A program made the translations under genes and the position numbers. The notes beneath the pieces are model-generated. The model made no database searches and was not told the DNA's origin. It saw only the letters and a list, made by a program, of their open reading frames with translations. DNA of 64,000 nucleotides from sequence record NC_054902.1. One strand, written 5' to 3'. Below are positions 1,109-11,689 of this stretch, one piece after another; position 1 is the stretch's first letter, and each line of letters begins with the position of its first letter. Source of the stretch: Enterobacteria phage Aplg8.

Positions 1109-1161
1109 CCTCATGTTATGTCAGTAAGACTACTATAACACAACACGAGGGACTTGTAAAC
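1109..1161 (-). promoter_or_regulatory. Early sigma70-type promoter plus leader, copy A of a 53-bp repeat
   Basis: Minus strand reads GTTTAC-N18-TATAGT, then a leader ending in CATGAGG immediately before the ATG at 1100; 52/53 identical to 16389-16441. Confidence 0.5.
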
Positions 1162-3218
1162 TACATTTTGAACTTTTTAGACATTCCGTTGATGTTAACC
1201 AAAGAAGCTAAGATTTGAGAAACTTCGTTTTCCTCTTCTTTTGATTCTTCTACAAGGAATTGATTAAATCCAGCCATTAGACGAACTTCACCAGTTTCCA
1301 TTAGATGGTCGCCATCATATACTGATTCCTCTAATTGTTCAGAAGGAGGAACGATTGTACCTTCGATTAGATACTTGTTATAAGCAGTTTCTTTCATAAA
1401 GTAAGTACTTACTTTATTAATCTTCAGTAAAATTCCACGTGGTAGAATAACTTCAGCTTCTGATGGAAATCCTGATAAATGACCCGGAACGATAACTTTG
1501 ATTCGCTCAGCTCCTTTAATTACCATACCCACGCTAGTTTCAGCATCTTCATTAGCATATGTAGAATGACTACCCATATGCATCAAATCTTCTGCATCAA
1601 CGGAACCTTCTCCTTCACCAGAAAATACTGCTCCGGAATCATCTAAGGCCATATAATTTTTACCATACTCACCAAAGATATTTGGTTTAAGTGATGTCGA
1701 TACGAAGTTCTTGAAATAGAACATTTTATTTTCAATGTTATGACGCAAAGTTTTAAAAGTAACTTCTTGTCCACGGTAAAGTGTAGTTCCTGGAGGAAGA
1801 ACTGAACCTTTAGCGAATGCAGAATCAAGCGTCTCAATATGTTTAATAGCTCGTTCCATATATTCTTCACGGGTAGAATCTGGTTTACCCAAAAGGAACG
1901 AGTTCATTTCAACATATGAATCTGCGCAATAATCTTCAATTACGTCAGATTCAGCCTGAGTTAATCCTTTTGGAGTTACTTCGGTGCTTGCATATTCATA
2001 CGCCTGAGCAGCGGATTCATCAATTAATTTATAAATGCCATTCATGACAAATTGAATAATAGCTGTCTTTTCATCTGGCGTAGCTTTAGAACCTTTAACT
2101 AAATCATTGACAATTTTCTTAATAACATCAAAGCTATTAGAAATATTAATGTCAGCAAGATCGCTTAAAATTTTATCAGTTTTATAATCAAAAAATTCTT
2201 TATTCTTTAAATATTCTTGAGAACTTTGATATGTTATATCGCTCTGCAACTTGATAGATGGATCACGTAAACGTGCATGGGCTAATGCAATATGATTTCG
2301 GAAGCTTTCTAGTTCATAATCGTTAGATTTAAAACGAGAAGCACTTCTCATACCACCGATAGCTCCTTTGCTGAAGTTTGAACCAATCTGAATAACGCCA
2401 GAGTTCATTGGTCCTTCTGCTTTATATACCGGAACTTTAGATTCAAACTCTTGATATTTCTTAGCAGCGAAGCTATCACCCTGAAGTGAAGCATCAACAG
2501 TAGAATATTGAGCTTGTGCTGCTAATCGACGACTAATTTTAGTTTTCTGAATAACAGCTTGATCCGTACGCTTATCATTTTCTAAAGCAATAGAAGCAGC
2601 AACTGCGACAGCTTTAGGAACAGCATTACCTGTTTTAACGTCTACATAAACATCACCAACCTTTGATTCAACTTTTGTGAATAACTCAGTTGAAATAGGA
2701 GGTACACCTGGAATGTCTTCTAAATTGGCATTTTTACGGTAAACCATAATATATGCATATTTCTTATCATAGTCCCAGATTTCCTTTAAAAGAACATATC
2801 GACCTGCTCCTTTAGTACGTACTAAACGGTCAGCAATAACTTGCATTTGACGAGCTGCGCCATTTGTTTTACTCTTTAGTACGCGGAATAAGCATGCATC
2901 AATTTTATACTGTTTCATTGTTTGAAGAGCAGTATCAAAAACAGCATTAATGACGCCAATTGGATTTCCACCTAAGTTTTTAAGTTTAACTAATGATAAT
3001 TTCTCGTTGACACCTATCATTACGATATGCATCATTTTGTCGCCTGGCTTAACGTTTTTATTCGTATCACCGCCAGAGGTGTATGTACAAAATCTAAATC
3101 CAGGAAGCACGCTTTCTTCACCGGCTTGAATAGCAAAAATTTGAGGTATTTTATGCTTAGGATTTAAGTTAACAACCGGCGCCGAAGCGCCGTCAAATAA
3201 TTCTGTAATAAGTTCCAT
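1161..3218 (-). CDS. Alt-family ADP-ribosyltransferase paralog, 685 aa
   Basis: N-terminal ~240 aa (MELITELFD...KISRR) about 65% identical to the adjacent alt product; C-terminal region retains R-S-E type motifs (YRGQEVTF, FVSTSL, EAEVILPRG); central region diverged. Confidence 0.8.
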   Translation of the reverse strand: MELITELFDGASAPVVNLNPKHKIPQIFAIQAGEESVLPGFRFCTYTSGGDTNKNVKPGDKMMHIVMIGVNEKLSLVKLKNLGGNPIGVINAVFDTALQTMKQYKIDACLFRVLKSKTNGAARQMQVIADRLVRTKGAGRYVLLKEIWDYDKKYAYIMVYRKNANLEDIPGVPPISTELFTKVESKVGDVYVDVKTGNAVPKAVAVAASIALENDKRTDQAVIQKTKISRRLAAQAQYSTVDASLQGDSFAAKKYQEFESKVPVYKAEGPMNSGVIQIGSNFSKGAIGGMRSASRFKSNDYELESFRNHIALAHARLRDPSIKLQSDITYQSSQEYLKNKEFFDYKTDKILSDLADINISNSFDVIKKIVNDLVKGSKATPDEKTAIIQFVMNGIYKLIDESAAQAYEYASTEVTPKGLTQAESDVIEDYCADSYVEMNSFLLGKPDSTREEYMERAIKHIETLDSAFAKGSVLPPGTTLYRGQEVTFKTLRHNIENKMFYFKNFVSTSLKPNIFGEYGKNYMALDDSGAVFSGEGEGSVDAEDLMHMGSHSTYANEDAETSVGMVIKGAERIKVIVPGHLSGFPSEAEVILPRGILLKINKVSTYFMKETAYNKYLIEGTIVPPSEQLEESVYDGDHLMETGEVRLMAGFNQFLVEESKEEENEVSQILASLVNINGMSKKFKM

Positions 3219-3221
3219 GAT

Positions 3222-5318
3222 TTATCCTTGAACGAACTTGTAAGGCATGTTTGTAATATCTATGCAAGACGCAATAATTCCAAGAGATGATTCTACTTTC
3301 TGTTTAACATTTGATGAAACAAATGATGCAAAGTCAACTCTGTCTTCTATTTCAATATCACCTGTCATTGCAACTACTTCGCCAGTTTCCATTAAACGGT
3401 CACCGTCATAAATTACCGATTCGGTGAGTTCTTCGGTGGTCATAACTTCAGCTTGAATGAGTTTTGTATTATTAGACGTGGTTCCGTCATTATTAGAAGC
3501 ATCAGTTATTTTATTAACTTTGACCATCAATCCGCGCGGTAGAATAACTTCGGCTTCTGTTGCTATTCCGAGACTTCCTGGATATACAACATTAACTTTA
3601 TGAGCTCCATCAATTGCCCATCCTATTTGAACTTTAACGTATTCAGGATTTTCTTTATACGCTCTTATTTCGTTTGGATTAATAGTTATTCCTTCTTCAT
3701 TTTTATCAACTGTCAATTCATTACGAGCTTCTGGTTCTAAAAGACCAATACCAGCATGTGTAATTCCAAAACGTCCAAAAATGATAGGAGTTAAAGAAGT
3801 AGATACAAAATTTCTGAAATAGAACACTTTATTTTTAACTAGTGCTTCGTATATAGGAGCAGTCATACTTTGAGCACGATAAACTGTGATGCCTTCCGGT
3901 ATGCGGTCACCATTTTCAAAAGCTGAATCTAAGTTATTTATAGCAGATTCAATTTCTTTTTCACTCATTACATCATATCGTTCTGGATTGTAACGACCTA
4001 AAAGAAGATTATTGATGTCAGTATATCCTGAACCGCAATATTCTCTAATGCCACGCTTTTGTGATGGAGTATATTTAGAACCATCGCGGGCAATAGTAAT
4101 ATCAATCATTGGACCAGCACCAATTCCAGAAAAACTGTAAATCATTCGTTTGAGGAATTTAGTTTTTGCTGCGTTCCAGGAATTTTTAGTTATTTCTTCC
4201 CAGACTTCATCTGGTTGTCCTTTACGATTTTTATTATGATTAGCAAGCCATTTATCTTTATAATCTTCAAAGAATTGATTTACAGCTGCTGCGTATTTCT
4301 CTAAACATTTTATTGAAGTAGTTGGTTCATTTTTAATTGCATTAAAAATTACTTCTTTAATTTTTTCTGAAACTTCACCGACTTGACTCATTGGAAAGAA
4401 TTTATAATCATAGTGAAGTTCATCTGCCGTTCCTTTAGCAATAATTTTTGCTGCCTTTGTTTTAGAAGCTAATGAATTAATTCCAATTTTCATTTCTTCT
4501 GCTTCGGGAATTAAAGGTGCAGTAGCTGGTTTATTAAAATTAGCTGCTGTAGATTCATACTTCTGGAATAATTCACTTTCAAATCTAGAAGATTCCAATG
4601 ACTGACTTTGTGCAATTGCTCTACGGGAAATTTTAACTTTAACGATTACGGCTTGGTCAGAACGTTTATCATTTTCTTGTGCAATAGATGCAGCAATTGC
4701 CTCATTTTTGGTTACTTGAGCTCCAGTATCTTTATTGATATAAACATCACCGACTTTCGATTCAACTTTAGTAAAGAGCTCGGTACTAATTTCCGGAACT
4801 CCTGGAATGTCTTCTAGTGATACATTTTTACGATGTATAAGAATATATGCATACTTTTTATCGTAATCCCAGAGTTCCTTAAGAAGGACGTATCTGCCAC
4901 CTGAACGACTGCGGATGAGTCTATCAGCAATAAGTTGAATTTGTCGAGCTTGACCGGCGGTTTTAGACTTAAGAATACGGAGCATACAGGCATCAATTTT
5001 ATACTGACGCATCGTTTGCATCGCAACAGTAAAAACTGAATTGATGTAATTAATTGGGCTTGGACCGAGACCTTTTAATTTAGCAATTGAACCTTTAGCA
5101 GTTAATGTAAAAGGAACAATATGCATCATTTTATCGCCCATCTTTAAATCGCGATTAGTATCACCTCCAGATGTATAGGTACACAAACGAAAGCCTGGTT
5201 GTTCAATTGCGTCATCAACATGAACTGAAAAAATTTGCGGTATTTTCTTCTTTGGATTTAAGTTTGTAATCGGAAGAGTAGTATCTTCGTCAAATAATTC
5301 TGTAATGAGTTCCATCAT
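3222..5318 (-). CDS. alt: Alt ADP-ribosyltransferase, head-packaged; probable start at the second Met
   Basis: 698-aa ORF starting MMELITELFDEDTTLPI; motifs YRAQSMTA, FVSTSL, EAEVILPRG; T4 Alt is 682 aa (recalled); located next to gene 30 as in T4. Confidence 0.85.
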   Translation of the reverse strand: MMELITELFDEDTTLPITNLNPKKKIPQIFSVHVDDAIEQPGFRLCTYTSGGDTNRDLKMGDKMMHIVPFTLTAKGSIAKLKGLGPSPINYINSVFTVAMQTMRQYKIDACMLRILKSKTAGQARQIQLIADRLIRSRSGGRYVLLKELWDYDKKYAYILIHRKNVSLEDIPGVPEISTELFTKVESKVGDVYINKDTGAQVTKNEAIAASIAQENDKRSDQAVIVKVKISRRAIAQSQSLESSRFESELFQKYESTAANFNKPATAPLIPEAEEMKIGINSLASKTKAAKIIAKGTADELHYDYKFFPMSQVGEVSEKIKEVIFNAIKNEPTTSIKCLEKYAAAVNQFFEDYKDKWLANHNKNRKGQPDEVWEEITKNSWNAAKTKFLKRMIYSFSGIGAGPMIDITIARDGSKYTPSQKRGIREYCGSGYTDINNLLLGRYNPERYDVMSEKEIESAINNLDSAFENGDRIPEGITVYRAQSMTAPIYEALVKNKVFYFRNFVSTSLTPIIFGRFGITHAGIGLLEPEARNELTVDKNEEGITINPNEIRAYKENPEYVKVQIGWAIDGAHKVNVVYPGSLGIATEAEVILPRGLMVKVNKITDASNNDGTTSNNTKLIQAEVMTTEELTESVIYDGDRLMETGEVVAMTGDIEIEDRVDFASFVSSNVKQKVESSLGIIASCIDITNMPYKFVQG

Positions 5319-5556: not shown

Positions 5557-7016
5557 AAACCAGTTACCTCATGAAAATCGCCAAATACATCTTCGAACGT
5601 ATTAGCTTTAGTTTTATCTTCACGTAAACGAATCGCAATCGGAAGAAATAATTTAACGTAATCAGTGCGGCCATCAGATTTTAACCAACCGTTGCATTCG
5701 CACTCTAGAATTTTTCCAATATAATAATTTTGGTTTTCCATAATGCGAGTACGGTCAAGTTCATGCGATTTTACACCGGCTTTATCTTTTAAGCCTGAAC
5801 CAGCATTTACTTTAATTTTTCCACACTCTGATTCAAGAATAAATCCACCTGCTTTAGTAGGGTCTTTACGGTGAGGATAAATTCCTACAATTTTTAAATC
5901 AACATCAATTACTTCTTTAAATTTATAGAGATTTTTTGAACGAGCATTTTCCCATAACCCATCAACGTTTTTGAGAATAATACCTTCAAGACCTTGATCA
6001 ATATACTTTTTGTAAATTACCTTAGCTTCATCTAGGTTATTTACTACCTGGTTTTCAATTAAAATTACTTTATCATAGCCTGATGTCATTTGTTCTAGTT
6101 TAGAAAAACGTACATCATATTTTAAACGAAACGCCGGAAGACCGTATATTTCTACCAACGGGACATAATCCCAAACCTGAAACTTCATGCATTGAGCTTC
6201 TTTTTCAGAAATGGTTCCTTTTAAGGATTTATTGGCGATTCCATTAGAAGTAGTACGAGATTCCGCTACTTCGGCGAATTCTTTAGCTTTACTAATTTCA
6301 GGATAAGCATCAAAAAGAAAATCTAGGCCTTCTGGTTCCTTTTTAACTTGCTCATGGTATACCAATTCGCCATCAATTAACACGCCTTCTGGATGAATCT
6401 GGCGGGCTTCAGCAGTCATTTTGATTAACTCTTCCTTAAGAAGATCTAATCCTAGATATTCATTACCAGCTCGCGATAAAAGACGAACATCATCTAATTC
6501 ATCACCTCTAACTTCAGCAAAACATCGAGCTCCATCTGCTTTTAACTGCGCAAAGGCTGGAAATTTGATATTCTTACTAATGCCCTTTTCATCATAAGAA
6601 CTTGCCAGCATTTGAGGTTGTTCAGGAATTAAACCTGGCCAAACTTTGTTTGCAATAGATACTGAAGCACCGCATTCAAGGTCTCGCATCATCACTCGAC
6701 GCAAAACTTCAACATCATCCTTTTTACCATCGGTGATATATCCAGTCAATTCCTCAATTGCAGCATTTCCGGTCAATTTCCGAGTAGCTAACGTGAATTC
6801 AATGAAGTCAAGCATATCGGTAATAGTCAGCATTCCAAAACTCTGGGTAGCAATACCAGGTTTAGGCCATTTCTTGATATAATACTGTAACCCACGAGAA
6901 TAAGTCAGACGATATACCCGTTTAAGCAATTCATTATCTTTATTCTTTTCAAGAATTGCTTGCTTCTGCTTAGTTGATCCAATAGATGCTATTTCATTCA
7001 GAATTTTAAGAATCAT
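5553..7016 (-). CDS. 30: ATP-dependent DNA ligase
   Basis: 487 aa, same length as T4 gp30; start MILKILNEIASIGSTKQKQ; adenylation motif KADGAR. Confidence 0.95.
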   Translation of the reverse strand: MILKILNEIASIGSTKQKQAILEKNKDNELLKRVYRLTYSRGLQYYIKKWPKPGIATQSFGMLTITDMLDFIEFTLATRKLTGNAAIEELTGYITDGKKDDVEVLRRVMMRDLECGASVSIANKVWPGLIPEQPQMLASSYDEKGISKNIKFPAFAQLKADGARCFAEVRGDELDDVRLLSRAGNEYLGLDLLKEELIKMTAEARQIHPEGVLIDGELVYHEQVKKEPEGLDFLFDAYPEISKAKEFAEVAESRTTSNGIANKSLKGTISEKEAQCMKFQVWDYVPLVEIYGLPAFRLKYDVRFSKLEQMTSGYDKVILIENQVVNNLDEAKVIYKKYIDQGLEGIILKNVDGLWENARSKNLYKFKEVIDVDLKIVGIYPHRKDPTKAGGFILESECGKIKVNAGSGLKDKAGVKSHELDRTRIMENQNYYIGKILECECNGWLKSDGRTDYVKLFLPIAIRLREDKTKANTFEDVFGDFHEVTGL

Positions 7017-7282
7017 TGCTCATCCTTCAAAGTTTGGTTTACAGCTCTATTATAAATCAATTCATCATTAAGCTCAGGCAAAGACTTATGATATGTAGTT
7101 CTAACTTTATTTCCTTGCATCCAGTGCTTGACGTAAATGAAACCTTGCTCTACACATTTTTTAAAAATTCGTTCGTCTTTTTGAGCTCGGAATTCTGGAT
7201 TGCATCTAAAAAATTGATTTACGTGACCGTAATCACGTGTAGTATTACCTTCATTTTCATAAATAGTGTGAACGACAAACAT
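7013..7282 (-). CDS. Hypothetical protein, 89 aa (30.1 position)
   Basis: ORF tightly packed after gene 30. Confidence 0.5.
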   Translation of the reverse strand: MFVVHTIYENEGNTTRDYGHVNQFFRCNPEFRAQKDERIFKKCVEQGFIYVKHWMQGNKVRTTYHKSLPELNDELIYNRAVNQTLKDEQ

Positions 7283-8118
7283 TAGAATGCTCCTTGGAAA
7301 ATATTATCACCACCAGTAGGTCTATTATACAAATACTCTATGCCACCAGGTTTAATATAGTTCCATGTCTGAAAAGGATGCGTCTGATATGGATGATATA
7401 GATTATAAGGATTAAATCCAGGAGTTCTCCAGGTAGTGTTCCAAGGAAAAGAATCGTTTTTAATCATCTTCTCAATTACATCTTTTATAACTTTTTCACT
7501 ATCAAAACTTTCTTTATTTTCCTTCGATGGAAAAAGCTTATTCTCTACATCATTCCATGTATAAACTCGCTGTGCAGTTTTTGGAATACTGTCACGCTCC
7601 CCTCGAGCCATCCAATAAACAGGAACATTTAATATTTCACTCGCGTGATCGCAATGGTGAGCGAGATCGTCAATATAACAAATTACGTTATATTTCTCTT
7701 TTGCCTTTTTGAACAACTCTTCTTTTGAAGAATCATGACCACACATCAATACTTCTGAGAAGGCACCAGGAAAAAGAGCATTCAAATTAAATTGACGATT
7801 CAGCAGAGCGTCAATAGAATCACCCAATGCTGTAACAGCTACAAAATTATAATCTTCTTTTAATTTGTTAATTACACACAGAGCATCTTTATATGGAGAC
7901 AAGTAACGAATAAAATCCGAACGATTGTATTTTTCAATTAGCTTAACGCCAAGTTCTTCATCACAGTTAAAGAGTTTACCTGGAGAAATAAATTTTTCGT
8001 CCTGAATCATTTTTAAAATATGTTCTAATGGAAGATTATATTTTTGGGCAAAATAAGGAAGACCTGATTGCCAGCTTAAACATACACCATCAATATCAGT
8101 TAAAATAGTAGGCTTCAT
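7282..8118 (-). CDS. HAD-superfamily hydrolase-like protein, 278 aa (30.2 position)
   Basis: N-terminal ILTDIDGV resembles HAD motif I (DxDG); later YIDDLAHH acidic motif. Confidence 0.5.
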   Translation of the reverse strand: MKPTILTDIDGVCLSWQSGLPYFAQKYNLPLEHILKMIQDEKFISPGKLFNCDEELGVKLIEKYNRSDFIRYLSPYKDALCVINKLKEDYNFVAVTALGDSIDALLNRQFNLNALFPGAFSEVLMCGHDSSKEELFKKAKEKYNVICYIDDLAHHCDHASEILNVPVYWMARGERDSIPKTAQRVYTWNDVENKLFPSKENKESFDSEKVIKDVIEKMIKNDSFPWNTTWRTPGFNPYNLYHPYQTHPFQTWNYIKPGGIEYLYNRPTGGDNIFQGAF

Positions 8119-8579
8119 AGAGAGTCTCTTAATAGGTTTAACACATCAATAAATTCAGCTTCGGTTAATATTGTATCATCTTTTGTTAGACCACTAGCCA
8201 TGCTGTGCTTCAAAACTTTTCCTTTCGAGGCTTGTAATGCATCACGAAAGCCCCTGTTTTGGAACGCTGCTTCAAAATATGCATTTGTGTATAATTCTTT
8301 CCACGCTGGAGAGTATCTTGAAAACGGAACTCCGAGCCAGAAGAGGGTCCCACGGTCCTGAGCTCTAGCATAAGCTCGTCCAGCTTGTTGGGCAGCAAGC
8401 CCGGATAACCCAAATATACGACGTTGCTGTTCAACATTTTTCACCTTACACCCTTGGAGGAATCCTTCGAGACCTCCAAATTGGATACCATCCATAACAA
8501 AAGGCCATTGGGCGAAATTACTTAATGCGCATGATGGCCATTTAAAATTGCTTCTTATCTCTAGCTCAGACATTTTCAA
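8115..8579 (-). CDS. NADAR/YbiA-like domain protein, 154 aa (30.3 position)
   Basis: LSNFAQWPFVMDG...EGFLQGCKV aligns with the E. coli YbiA core FSNFAAWPIKVDG...EHYFQAQKF (recalled); C-terminal part alignable but lacks a clear ENDxxWG motif. Confidence 0.5.
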   Translation of the reverse strand: MKMSELEIRSNFKWPSCALSNFAQWPFVMDGIQFGGLEGFLQGCKVKNVEQQRRIFGLSGLAAQQAGRAYARAQDRGTLFWLGVPFSRYSPAWKELYTNAYFEAAFQNRGFRDALQASKGKVLKHSMASGLTKDDTILTEAEFIDVLNLLRDSL

Positions 8580-8772
8580 TACTTATAATTTCAACATCAG
8601 CCCAATGACCATAGCAAGGAAGACGAAATTCAACTGGCCAGTTAGGGTCCTTTTCTAATATAATAGACTCAACTTTCGGTTCTTCATGTTCATCAGTATA
8701 TGGATTTTTATCTGTTACTTTATATGTGACCTTAATGTACTGAATTCCAAAAATCTTATTAATTATATTCAT
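8566..8772 (-). CDS. Hypothetical protein, 68 aa
   Basis: ORF in operon-like array overlapping its neighbours by a few nt. Confidence 0.4.
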   Translation of the reverse strand: MNIINKIFGIQYIKVTYKVTDKNPYTDEHEEPKVESIILEKDPNWPVEFRLPCYGHWADVEIISIENV

Positions 8773-8966
8773 ACTAATTCCTTTAATCCGTAAATAGGAG
8801 ATAATTCATCGCCCATACGAAGGTCTTCATTTCCATCTACCCAGGAAACAATATAAGCCTCTTTTATTTGAATACCACTCCATTTAAATGGAGGTAGAAC
8901 CTTAGAAATTAATCCAGGTATACCAACTCCCTTTAATTCAACAGTTTGACCTAAAAAGAATTTCAT
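8769..8966 (-). CDS. Hypothetical protein, 65 aa
   Basis: ORF in operon-like array. Confidence 0.4.
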   Translation of the reverse strand: MKFFLGQTVELKGVGIPGLISKVLPPFKWSGIQIKEAYIVSWVDGNEDLRMGDELSPIYGLKELV

Positions 8967-9253
8967 TAGAACCTCATCTGAAAACCGTGCGATTTAACAT
9001 TACCGCCGCCAATATCAGAAATGTTAATTTCACGCGCAATTGAAGGATCAATGTCAATTTCACGATTGAGTTTAGTGATAGCTAAAGTATCGCGCCCATT
9101 TACAGTACGGAACTCTAAAGGACATACTACATTAACGTAGTTTTTAATCGATTCACTGGTAGGTTGCAAATGAGCAGGAAGGTCTTTAGGCGCTTTAGAG
9201 AAAACCACTTCACAGAAATTTTTGCGGGTATCAAAATAAGTAGTCATAAACAT
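8966..9253 (-). CDS. Hypothetical protein, 95 aa
   Basis: ORF preceded by a UUCG-loop hairpin (GGGGCTTCGGCCCC) and a GAGG Shine-Dalgarno. Confidence 0.45.
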   Translation of the reverse strand: MFMTTYFDTRKNFCEVVFSKAPKDLPAHLQPTSESIKNYVNVVCPLEFRTVNGRDTLAITKLNREIDIDPSIAREINISDIGGGNVKSHGFQMRF

Positions 9254-9294
9254 AGTATTTTCCTCAGTAAGGGGCCGAAGCCCCTCATTTTATT

Positions 9295-9660
9295 TTAAAT
9301 ATCAAATTCGTTAAGAACTACATCAAAGATTGCTTCAAGATGCTCAGGTTTAGCTCTGTTACTCAGAATATGACGAATCCAAGTTTTAACCAGAAGCTTG
9401 CGATTAACGCCATTCCAGCAAGGATGAGTCCCTAAATCGCGTTGACGAAAATCATCATCCAAAGCGATTTTGAAGTTGGAACCTTCCATTGTGATTGAAA
9501 CCGTGATGCCATTTTCAAATCGCATATAAACGTAGTTAGGAGTCATATACTGTTCAATTTCGCATACTGATCCATTTTGATGTTTCCAAAGGCAAATAGT
9601 ATCAATAGAACCTGCAATACCATTAGAAACATATTTACGTTCAAAGTTGATGTAGTTCAT
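9295..9660 (-). CDS. Hypothetical protein, 121 aa
   Basis: ORF directly downstream of an early promoter; Shine-Dalgarno GGAGAA. Confidence 0.45.
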   Translation of the reverse strand: MNYINFERKYVSNGIAGSIDTICLWKHQNGSVCEIEQYMTPNYVYMRFENGITVSITMEGSNFKIALDDDFRQRDLGTHPCWNGVNRKLLVKTWIRHILSNRAKPEHLEAIFDVVLNEFDI

Positions 9661-9697
9661 TTTTATTCTCCGAGATGTTTAATTGCGGTACAGGTAT

Positions 9698-9726
9698 ATA
9701 ATATCATATCCTGTACCAAAGTAAAC
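9698..9726 (-). promoter_or_regulatory. Early promoter (GTTTAC-N17-TATTAT)
   Basis: Minus strand GTTTAC then 17 nt then TATTAT; 8-bp inverted repeat GGTACAGG/CCTGTACC brackets the -10. Confidence 0.5.
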
Positions 9727-9728
9727 AA

Positions 9729-10061
9729 TTATTTTACTACTTTCCAGTGCTGCATGTCAAGTTTACCAACTTTTTTCATCTTCTCAATTAAGCGTTCGGC
9801 ACGTTGGCGAGCTGTAACATAATACCATTCACCTAATTCATTTTGTTCAATTTTTCCAACGATTACTGTATTCAATTCATAAATCCAACCAGTAAAGAAA
9901 TTATGAACTTGAATTGTAAAGGTGAAATCTGTTCCCATACCTTCTGTTGTTTCTACTTCAATAATATTACCTTCAACTGCCATTAAGAACCACATAGTTT
10001 CATCATATTTACCATTGAAGCATTTAGTTTTAACTGCAGCGTTCAGATTAATCGTTTTCAT
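9729..10061 (-). CDS. Hypothetical protein, 110 aa
   Basis: ORF with AAGGAG Shine-Dalgarno downstream of an early promoter. Confidence 0.45.
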   Translation of the reverse strand: MKTINLNAAVKTKCFNGKYDETMWFLMAVEGNIIEVETTEGMGTDFTFTIQVHNFFTGWIYELNTVIVGKIEQNELGEWYYVTARQRAERLIEKMKKVGKLDMQHWKVVK

Positions 10062-10088
10062 TTTATTCTCCTTTGTTTGTGTAAGATA

Positions 10089-10118
10089 ATACTATCACAA
10101 AGGAACCATACTGTAAAC
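10089..10118 (-). promoter_or_regulatory. Early promoter (GTTTAC-N18-TAGTAT)
   Basis: Consensus -35 GTTTAC and TGn-extended -10 on the minus strand. Confidence 0.5.
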
Positions 10119-10141
10119 AACTTTGTGCAATCTTTGGAAAA

Positions 10142-10167
10142 TAAAAAAGGACTCCCGAAGGAGTCCT
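10142..10167 (-). terminator. Rho-independent terminator (minus strand)
   Basis: GGACTCC-cgaa-GGAGTCC hairpin followed on the minus strand by TTTTTTAT; downstream of the 30.9-like gene. Confidence 0.6.
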
Positions 10168-10171
10168 CAAC

Positions 10172-10348
10172 TTATGCTTTCTGCTTACCAAAACGAGAAG
10201 CATCATCTCGAAGAACCGCACGTGCTCGGCGCATGATCTTCTCAACAGTTTGATTGATACGAGAGTTCGACCCACGCTTGTAACCAGCGCGTTTAGAATC
10301 ACCAACTTTCTTTTCAACTGCTTTCTTTGCTTTAGCTTGTTTTGCCAT
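10172..10348 (-). CDS. Small basic protein, about 58 aa (30.9 position)
   Basis: Track ORF 10172-10390 trimmed to the internal Met (MAKQAKAKKAVEKK...); lysine/arginine rich. Confidence 0.4.
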   Translation of the reverse strand: MAKQAKAKKAVEKKVGDSKRAGYKRGSNSRINQTVEKIMRRARAVLRDDASRFGKQKA

Positions 10349-10592
10349 TATAAATTCTCTTTTAAATGAAAATGCAGGACTTATTGGCATTGCCTGCGAA
10401 AGCCCTCAAGGGGTACTTAGGTTTTGAATATTTAACGACCAGGATAACCATAAACCCGTCATCATTCACATTCAAGAGGTACACCGTAAAACTGCCGGGG
10501 TCTTAAAACTATAATGATTCGCAAATCATTAATCAGACAGTTCGACGGCTCCTCGATTTTAGCTCACACTAAGGCAGTGAATCTCCAATAAA

Positions 10593-10841
10593 TTACTTCA
10601 GTGTTACCACAAAGTGACGAACTGCTTTTCGTGCAGCAGAAGCCAGAGGCTTAGCATATTTAAGTTCATCTTTTTCCTGAAGCTCAGCGGCTAATGCAGT
10701 TTGAGCAGGATTCAGATGTTTGAAATAACGCAGGATTTCAAGAGCTTCGGCTTCAACATCAATAGATGCGCCATAGTTTTCGTGACCATTATTCCATGCG
10801 TTTCGTTGCAGTTCAAGAGCGTGTTGTAATTGTTTAATCAT
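10593..10841 (-). CDS. rIII: rIII lysis-inhibition accessory protein
   Basis: 82 aa as T4 rIII; position between the gene 30 cluster and gene 31. Confidence 0.8.
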   Translation of the reverse strand: MIKQLQHALELQRNAWNNGHENYGASIDVEAEALEILRYFKHLNPAQTALAAELQEKDELKYAKPLASAARKAVRHFVVTLK

Positions 10842-10988
10842 TTAAAAATTCTCGTTAGAGATTAAAACTCGGTAGTCACGTTCTTCTGAATTTCATCTTC
10901 TTTCGACAGATCTCTCAGTTGTAGACTACCACATAGAATTGTTCGGTTAACTTATTATTCCGACACCCAATTCATATTATTATTTATA

Positions 10989-11324
10989 TCACTTATAAAG
11001 ACACGGAATAGCTTTATAATGACAGGTAACGAATTTTTGTTTAATTTCTTTTGGCTGCTTAAGACCCAGAGCTACAAAAGGATGCGGAACATTTCGAATT
11101 TGACCAACTGGAAGAGAAGTCAAATCACCAACTTCGCAGAAACCTTCAGGAACATCAGGACCAACAGAGTGAACTACACACAGTTCAGGAACTTCACCTT
11201 GGACACGTTTACCAATAATAAGTCCTGATTCTGTAACTTCTTCATCACCGGCTTGCGCAGGTTCAGAAACTAAAATAACATATTCACCGACAGCACGAAT
11301 TGGTAGCTGTTGTACTTCAGACAT
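10989..11324 (-). CDS. 31: Co-chaperonin gp31 (GroES analogue)
   Basis: 111 aa as T4 gp31; synteny rIII-31-cd. Confidence 0.85.
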
Positions 11325-11354
11325 CGTTTTTCCTTTTTGTTAACAGATGAATTA

Positions 11355-11382
11355 ATAATAACAAATAATTCTTAAAGCATTT
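11355..11382 (-). promoter_or_regulatory. Candidate MotA-dependent middle promoter for gene 31
   Basis: Minus strand aaaTGCTTTA (MotA-box-like), 12 nt, then TATTAT, about 25 nt upstream of the gene 31 ATG. Confidence 0.45.
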
Positions 11383-11689
11383 ATTTACCAATAAATTGAA
11401 GCAAATGCTCAACTTTCATGCCATTAACGGAAATCAATTTGTCAATAGAAAAACCTCGCCATGCACCGAGTTCAACATCAAATATCGGAATCATATCAGT
11501 AGATTCTTTCCGAGTAGATTCAGTCAATTTACCGGTTTGCATAGTTGGCATAAAGTCACCATCACGGGTGCCTTTCATAGTACGAATAGTACCATCAGAC
11601 TTTTCAAAAACCACGTTTGAAATACCCATGGACAATTTAGTTTTCAAAATTTCACGAATTGCTACTTTCTGTTCAGTTGTCAGTTTCAT
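11381..11689 (-). CDS. Hypothetical protein, 102 aa
   Basis: ORF between cd and gene 31. Confidence 0.45.
   Translation of the reverse strand: MKLTTEQKVAIREILKTKLSMGISNVVFEKSDGTIRTMKGTRDGDFMPTMQTGKLTESTRKESTDMIPIFDVELGAWRGFSIDKLISVNGMKVEHLLQFIGK

Follow-up and report, generated by a model that had tools for sequence, protein, structure and literature searches.

Here, we describe a gene in a 64,000-nucleotide stretch of Enterobacteria phage Aplg8 (sequence record NC_054902.1; this whole stretch is called the window below), an open reading frame (ORF) on the minus strand at 8115..8579, which very probably encodes an ortholog of AdfN, a guanine-N2 ADP-ribosyl glycohydrolase that clears DarT1 modifications from replicating phage DNA. 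The feature is already known, as AdfN or gp30.3 (published 2024-2025), and the window adds another intact allele, full-length and with the homology, the fold and the conserved catalytic residues of this enzyme. In the mechanism that we propose, a minimal ADP-ribosyl glycohydrolase of 152 amino acids (aa) with the NADAR fold would be produced from the tightly packed gene array running from 30.9 to 30, and would act when DarT1 of the host, belonging to the DarTG1 toxin-antitoxin defence, ADP-ribosylates guanines of the replicating phage DNA. AdfN would cut the N-glycosidic bond between guanine N2 and ADP-ribose (ADPr), freeing the ADPr and restoring a replicable template, so that the phage could escape abortive infection. 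Catalysis would proceed via Glu36 and Lys43 of the E-G-F-L-Q-x-x-K motif, with His123 probably filling the role that a Glu or Asp has in cellular NADARs.

The assignment is carried first by orthology with gene 30.3 of phage T4. The ORF comprises 154 aa when read from a TTG in the ORF list, and its translation contains the string ALSNFAQWPFVMDGIQFGGLEGFLQGCKV quoted in the first-pass annotation. The true start is almost certainly the ATG at 8573, giving a coding sequence of 152 aa plus stop at 8115..8573 on the minus strand, because T4 30.3 is annotated with 459 nucleotides and 152 aa from MSELEIRS and because this ATG overlaps the TGA of gene 30.4; all residue numbers refer to the 152-aa protein. 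The product has the same length as T4 gp30.3 and is identical to it at 147 of 152 residues (97%). The two proteins also share the gene neighbourhood, E36 and K43, H123 and an intact C-terminal helix, and differ in five conservative substitutions (R11K, S67A, I104F, K107R and I125M), none of which suggests a changed function. The protein matches the Pfam family PF08010 (Phage_30_3) with 230.6 bits against a cut-off of 36, which together with orthology and synteny with T4 30.3 places it in this subfamily, and it also matches phrog_652, which has no assigned function.

The function of the T4 protein has been established in several studies. Cihlova et al. (Toxins 2024, PMC11125620) listed the gp30.3 proteins as 'phage NADARs' and reported that in vitro T4 gp30.3 hydrolyses guanosine-linked ADPr on DNA, whereas thymidine-ADPr is not a substrate. 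In Johannesman et al. (Nat Commun 2025, PMC11825919), the DarTG1 resistance of T-even phages was traced to 30.3, which was renamed adfN (anti-DarT factor NADAR); T4 and T2 require the gene for resistance to DarTG1, it suffices to make RB69 resistant, and purified AdfN strips ADPr from DarT1-modified DNA. A 2026 paper again takes the T4 enzyme as the phage NADAR representative, with hydrolase activity in vitro (PMC12945103). The first-pass annotation had suggested counter-defence against a host DNA ADP-ribosylating toxin of the DarT type, and the publication of the T4 ortholog as an anti-DarTG1 factor bears this out. From the 97% identity we infer that the window allele would behave like the T4 protein, both in its activity and in its anti-DarTG1 phenotype. 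With AdfN, an orphan antitoxin-like enzyme serving counter-defence was for the first time seen in a lytic phage.

Further evidence comes from the relationship of the ORF to established NADARs. The first-pass annotation had aligned the core of the ORF with a YbiA motif, and the motif was given accurately, as Escherichia coli YbiA reads FSNFAAWPIKVDGKTWPTSEHYFQAQKF. In BLASTP the window protein matches E. coli YbiA with 37% identity over 52 residues at E 1e-5, and the match is therefore more than chance. For comparisons at the family level, relatives were gathered, first 22 by word index and then 1449 representatives (50% clustering) by an exhaustive profile search, and from the latter 50 diverse members were taken into alignment A2. 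The A2 profile aligns to E. coli YbiA in hhalign with a probability of 95.7% and E 8.6e-9 over 115 columns, and when it was run against all PDB sequences YbiA was the sole match below E 0.1 (E 0.0011), spanning the noticed motif. Weak secondary PF08719 matches are found in 20 of the 50 members, the best at 1.1e-4. The single protein searched against PDB sequences with phmmer gave just a spurious match to an N-type ATP pyrophosphatase (E 0.87), and PADLOC and NCBIfam scans of gp30.3 and gp30.2 returned nothing useful. The protein has the alpha+beta fold of NADARs, with a helical core and small beta-hairpins at the flanks. The family-level alignment, the PDB profile match, the BLASTP result and the conserved motif all uphold the NADAR/YbiA-like identity first proposed for the ORF; a reader working from the sequence only had recovered a remote homology masked by a separate Pfam family name, and an experimentally proven function.

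The residues expected for catalysis are in place. The NADAR signature block L17-V44 (LSNFAQWPFVMDGIQFGGLEGFLQGCKV; 8442..8525, minus strand) aligns to YbiA SNFAAWPIKVDG...EHYFQAQKF, so that E36 (codon GAA, 8466-8468) and K43 (codon AAG, 8445-8447) stand opposite the Glu and Lys of E-HYFQ-AQK in YbiA and make up the catalytic pair of the E-x-x-x-Q-x-x-K motif. N19 and E36 are invariant in A2 (n=50), and conservation is at least 90% for K43, Q40, H123 and the TILTE motif. The catalytic Glu, whose loss the first-pass annotation had named as a result that would speak against a NADAR, is thus retained. In T4 AdfN, E36A and K43A impair the protein (PMC11825919). Cellular NADARs have an acidic residue in the last strand that gp30.3 has not kept; the His123 codon (8205..8207, minus strand) belongs to the last beta-strand (LKHS) and falls on the site of this Glu or Asp or directly beside it, and hhalign places K122-H123 opposite E125-H126 of YbiA in a register that is ambiguous by one residue. 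H123 is subfamily-specific and at least 90% conserved also in alignment A6. In the gp30.3 proteins, the phage NADARs, a His is known to replace the last-strand Glu of the YbiA family or the Asp of DarG1 (PMC11125620, PMC12945103), and the loss of the second acidic position is this known subfamily-specific substitution, which marks the protein as a member of the gp30.3/AdfN-T4 subfamily.

The C-terminal helix is likewise intact. It covers residues 138-152 (EAEFIDVLNLLRDSL; 8118..8162, minus strand), is identical to that of T4, and is helical in the predicted model from 140 to 153 (154-aa numbering). Truncation lowers the activity of T4 AdfN, and the helix is needed for full activity (PMC11825919). 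RB69 is sensitive to DarTG1 and carries a frameshift that shortens its AdfN allele by 15 residues (PMC11825919); RB69 gp30.3 has 137 aa and ends at TILT, with the helix missing. Because the window allele retains a helix identical to that of T4, as opposed to the RB69 truncation, we regard it as the intact and presumably active form.

Several observations weigh against the assignment or limit it. The allele differs from T4 at 5 of 152 residues, although at 0 of the conserved catalytic positions. In a direct Pfam scan the single protein has no PF08719 match at E<=1, and the search proposed in the first-pass annotation therefore failed at the level of the single protein; this is not evidence against a NADAR, because Pfam splits the superfamily and keeps the separate model PF08010, and the NADAR relationship itself is supported by the family profile. 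T4 gp30.3 alone does not rescue uninfected E. coli from DarT1 (PMC11125620), AdfN-T4 is fully active just in T-even infection, for which DNA hypermodification is not the reason, and T4 AdfN only weakly helps non-T-even phages (PMC11825919). Given the lack of rescue in uninfected E. coli and the weak help to non-T-even phages, the simple picture of a free-standing antitoxin is incomplete, and a phage factor or the substrate context is involved.

Comparison with other NADAR systems is in line with this picture. DarG1, the DarT1-associated NADAR (PF22397; Geobacter/Trichlorobacter lovleyi structure 8bat), has an N-terminal extension that the window protein lacks, and a last-strand Asp where the window protein has His. 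DarG1 is encoded in an operon with darT1, whereas the neighbours of the window gene are 30.4 and 30.2, neither an ADP-ribosyltransferase (ART), and there is no adjacent darT; DarG1 is an antitoxin, whereas T4 AdfN fails as an antitoxin in uninfected cells. The window protein has no PF22397 match, and a single one of the 50 A2 members matches this family, at E 0.036. Membership in DarG1 was consequently rejected for a protein that has the core domain only (152 aa), no PF22397 match and, as its nearest ARTs, enzymes of the Alt type (PF03496). AdfN-Bas32 and AdfN-Bas60 of T5-like and Vequintavirinae phages are also phage-borne NADARs that counter DarTG1 by removing ADPr from guanine. However, these two fall into other NADAR clades, are independent acquisitions and neutralise DarT1 with no need for a phage co-factor, whereas the T4-type protein needs the T-even infection context.

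A different main job, very improbable in our assessment, would be to regulate or reverse the ADP-ribosylation that the phage itself performs with Alt, ModA or ModB, either through removal of ADPr or RNA chains from host proteins or through erasure of collateral Alt modification. The first-pass annotation had offered this as its alternative and had placed the ORF near ADP-ribosyltransferase genes, rightly so: there are two Alt-type ART genes at distances of 2.8-7 kb, both in the orientation of the ORF, the nearer one being 2.8 kb off. A distant member of the Straboviridae, Acinetobacter phage Abraxas, has the same 30.3/ligase/alt neighbourhood, and Iyer et al. (2022, PMC9503650) reported NADARs among the early genes of T4-like phages, expressed together with ARTs. 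However, the Alt and Mod enzymes modify protein arginine, whereas all assayed NADARs, T4 gp30.3 included, act on base-linked ADPr (guanine, and some on cytosine) and not on thymidine-ADPr, and proximity alone favours the alternative; the adfN deletion phenotype is specific to DarTG1 (PMC11825919), and gp30.3 homologs occur in phiM12 and RSP15 with no annotated alt within 3 kb on either side. The proximity of 30.3 and alt is most simply explained as inherited synteny.

The nearer of the two Alt-type genes is the alt ortholog (698 aa; 3222..5318, minus strand; PF03496 at 9.9e-38), with 70% overall identity to T4 Alt. It is near-identical to T4 Alt over approximately the first 250 residues and at the C-terminal end, whereas the stretch between them, where the ART domain match lies, has diverged. 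The second is a full-length Alt paralog (685 aa; 1161..3218, minus strand; PF03496 at 7.5e-20) with 41% identity to the first. The window thus has tandem full-length Alt paralogs, whereas T4 has one alt and the short remnants alt.-1 and alt.-2.

Equally improbable is that AdfN is mainly a small-molecule enzyme, acting on riboflavin intermediates as an N-glycosidase in the manner of YbiA or scavenging soluble immune signals derived from ADPr. E. coli YbiA (PF08719, structure 2b3w) has around 20% identity with the window protein and is encoded by a chromosomal gene in the LexA-controlled dinG operon, linked to N-glycosidase activity on riboflavin intermediates. However, the window protein has K122 and H123 where the YbiA family has its defining last-strand Glu, and membership in the YbiA family sensu stricto was rejected. 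Further, direct assays show hydrolysis of guanine-ADPr in DNA and removal of ADPr from DarT1-modified DNA (PMC11125620, PMC11825919), and the phenotype maps to a DNA-modifying toxin; small-molecule reactions may occur on the side, but the genetic evidence does not point to them. In one respect YbiA resembles T4 gp30.3, as its expression in uninfected E. coli also gave no rescue from DarT1 toxicity (PMC11125620). Finally, that the window allele is an inactive remnant like that of RB69, which proves that natural inactive alleles exist in the Tevenvirinae, the subfamily of the window phage, is barely credible with a frame open for all 152 codons, a C-terminus identical to T4, and E36, K43 and H123 intact.

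For the reading as an anti-DarT1 glycohydrolase, the dependence of T4-type AdfN on a T-even-specific factor is the part that could still matter, and gene 30.2 is a concrete candidate. This gene lies downstream (7282..8118, minus strand; 278 aa), its start ATG overlapping the 30.3 stop (ATGA). No Pfam family matches gp30.2, and a literature search for 'gp30.2' found no paper mentioning the name. In an alignment of its relatives (n=38), DxDG (HAD motif I) is invariant and DD (motif IV) nearly so. The AlphaFold model has a predicted local distance difference test (pLDDT) score of 82.6 overall and >90 for residues 1-190, with a disordered tail at 225-278, and adopts a HAD fold for which the top Foldseek match in the PDB is 2jao, a cytosolic 5'(3')-deoxyribonucleotidase (E 6.9e-9); entries of this enzyme also have the lowest root-mean-square deviations and the highest target-normalised template modelling (TM) scores. 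The best PDB match of the gp30.2 sequence profile is the same 5'(3')-deoxyribonucleotidase, weak at E 0.021. On this confident model, gp30.2 is predicted to be a HAD phosphatase closest to 5'(3')-deoxyribonucleotidases (NT5C type). The affinity with NT5C rests mainly on the fold search and the weak PDB profile match, because hhalign of gp30.2 profiles against a Vibrio NT5C and the NADAR-NT5C fusion P0035 aligned just HAD motif I, with probabilities of 28-68%. The C-terminal tail of gp30.2 (residues ~225-278; 7282..7450, minus strand) has a high content of P, W, N, Y and T and is predicted to be disordered (pLDDT <50); the homologs of MX01, Abraxas and AsFcp_4, with 212-220 aa, lack it.

That gp30.2 is the T-even factor needed by AdfN-T4 for full activity is unlikely, and it stands as a candidate partner. 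The two genes could form a two-enzyme module, with the proteins in a complex or with gp30.2 removing deoxynucleotides that are damaged or ADP-ribosylated. In the window as in T4, the 30.3 stop and the 30.2 start overlap, so that the genes are translationally coupled, and they occur in near-identical numbers of phage records (1509 for 30.3 and 1451 for 30.2) and in near-identical host genera. They adjoin in Acinetobacter phage Abraxas and are close in Aeromonas AsFcp_4 and a Slopekvirus. Additionally, in Vibrio phage Va3 (KVP40-like) the 30.3 homolog is overlapped at its end by a bona fide NT5C gene (PF06941, 3e-12), fusions of a gp30.3-type NADAR with NT5C are seen in two metagenomic cluster representatives, and 30.2 is intact in RB69, where ectopic AdfN is fully active. 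The link is weakened by the rarity of NT5C fusions (2 of 75 multi-domain representatives), by the other fusion domains, such as LRR_5, ASCH, GDSL lipase and LGT, some of which are probably gene-calling fusions, and by the lack of linkage outside the Straboviridae, in phiM12 or RSP15. Shared inherited synteny could explain all of the evidence for the link.

With regard to the genomic setting, the window belongs to a Tequatrovirus (T4-like phage) of the subfamily Tevenvirinae, and the 2.3 kb around the ORF have 96.5-97.2% identity to the best-matching Tequatrovirus genomes, including RB51, RB14 and RB68. Gene 30.3 is located in the 30.9-to-30 cluster, immediately upstream of 30.2, then 30.1 and DNA ligase, and the gene order is the same as in T4: 30.4, 30.3, 30.2, 30.1, ligase (30), alt.1 and alt. 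The upstream neighbour 30.4 (8566..8772, minus strand; ORF list, sequence, T4 annotation and phrog_2042) has a TGA stop overlapping the 30.3 ATG at ATGTCTGA, which indicates translational coupling. A promoter and terminator scan of 7000..11500 gave no more sites than the shuffled expectation and supports no claim on transcription units.

The PF08010 family is far larger than the name "phage gp30.3" implies, with 1449 clusters at 50% identity. Its representatives (P0023-P0026, P0024, P0094, P0126, P0051 and P0098) include tandem double and triple NADAR proteins, and fusions to BspA-type LRR, ASCH, GDSL lipase, LGT and membrane domains are found. Some deposited gp30.3 homologs are misannotated as 'DNA ligase', 'anti-CBASS protein acb1' or 'putative homing endonuclease' (the records being ORF201 of MX01, NC_031934, Klebsiella phage Roth16 and Escherichia phage UPEC03), and most are still 'hypothetical protein' despite the AdfN naming in 2025. 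An out-of-frame ORF inside 30.3, annotated in T4 as 30.3', is open in the window too (8210..8437, minus strand; 75 aa), where it is 87% identical to T4 30.3', compared with 97% for 30.3 over the same DNA, which suggests that the protein sequence of 30.3' is under little constraint. A 74-aa version of 30.3' is still open in Dhakavirus MX01.
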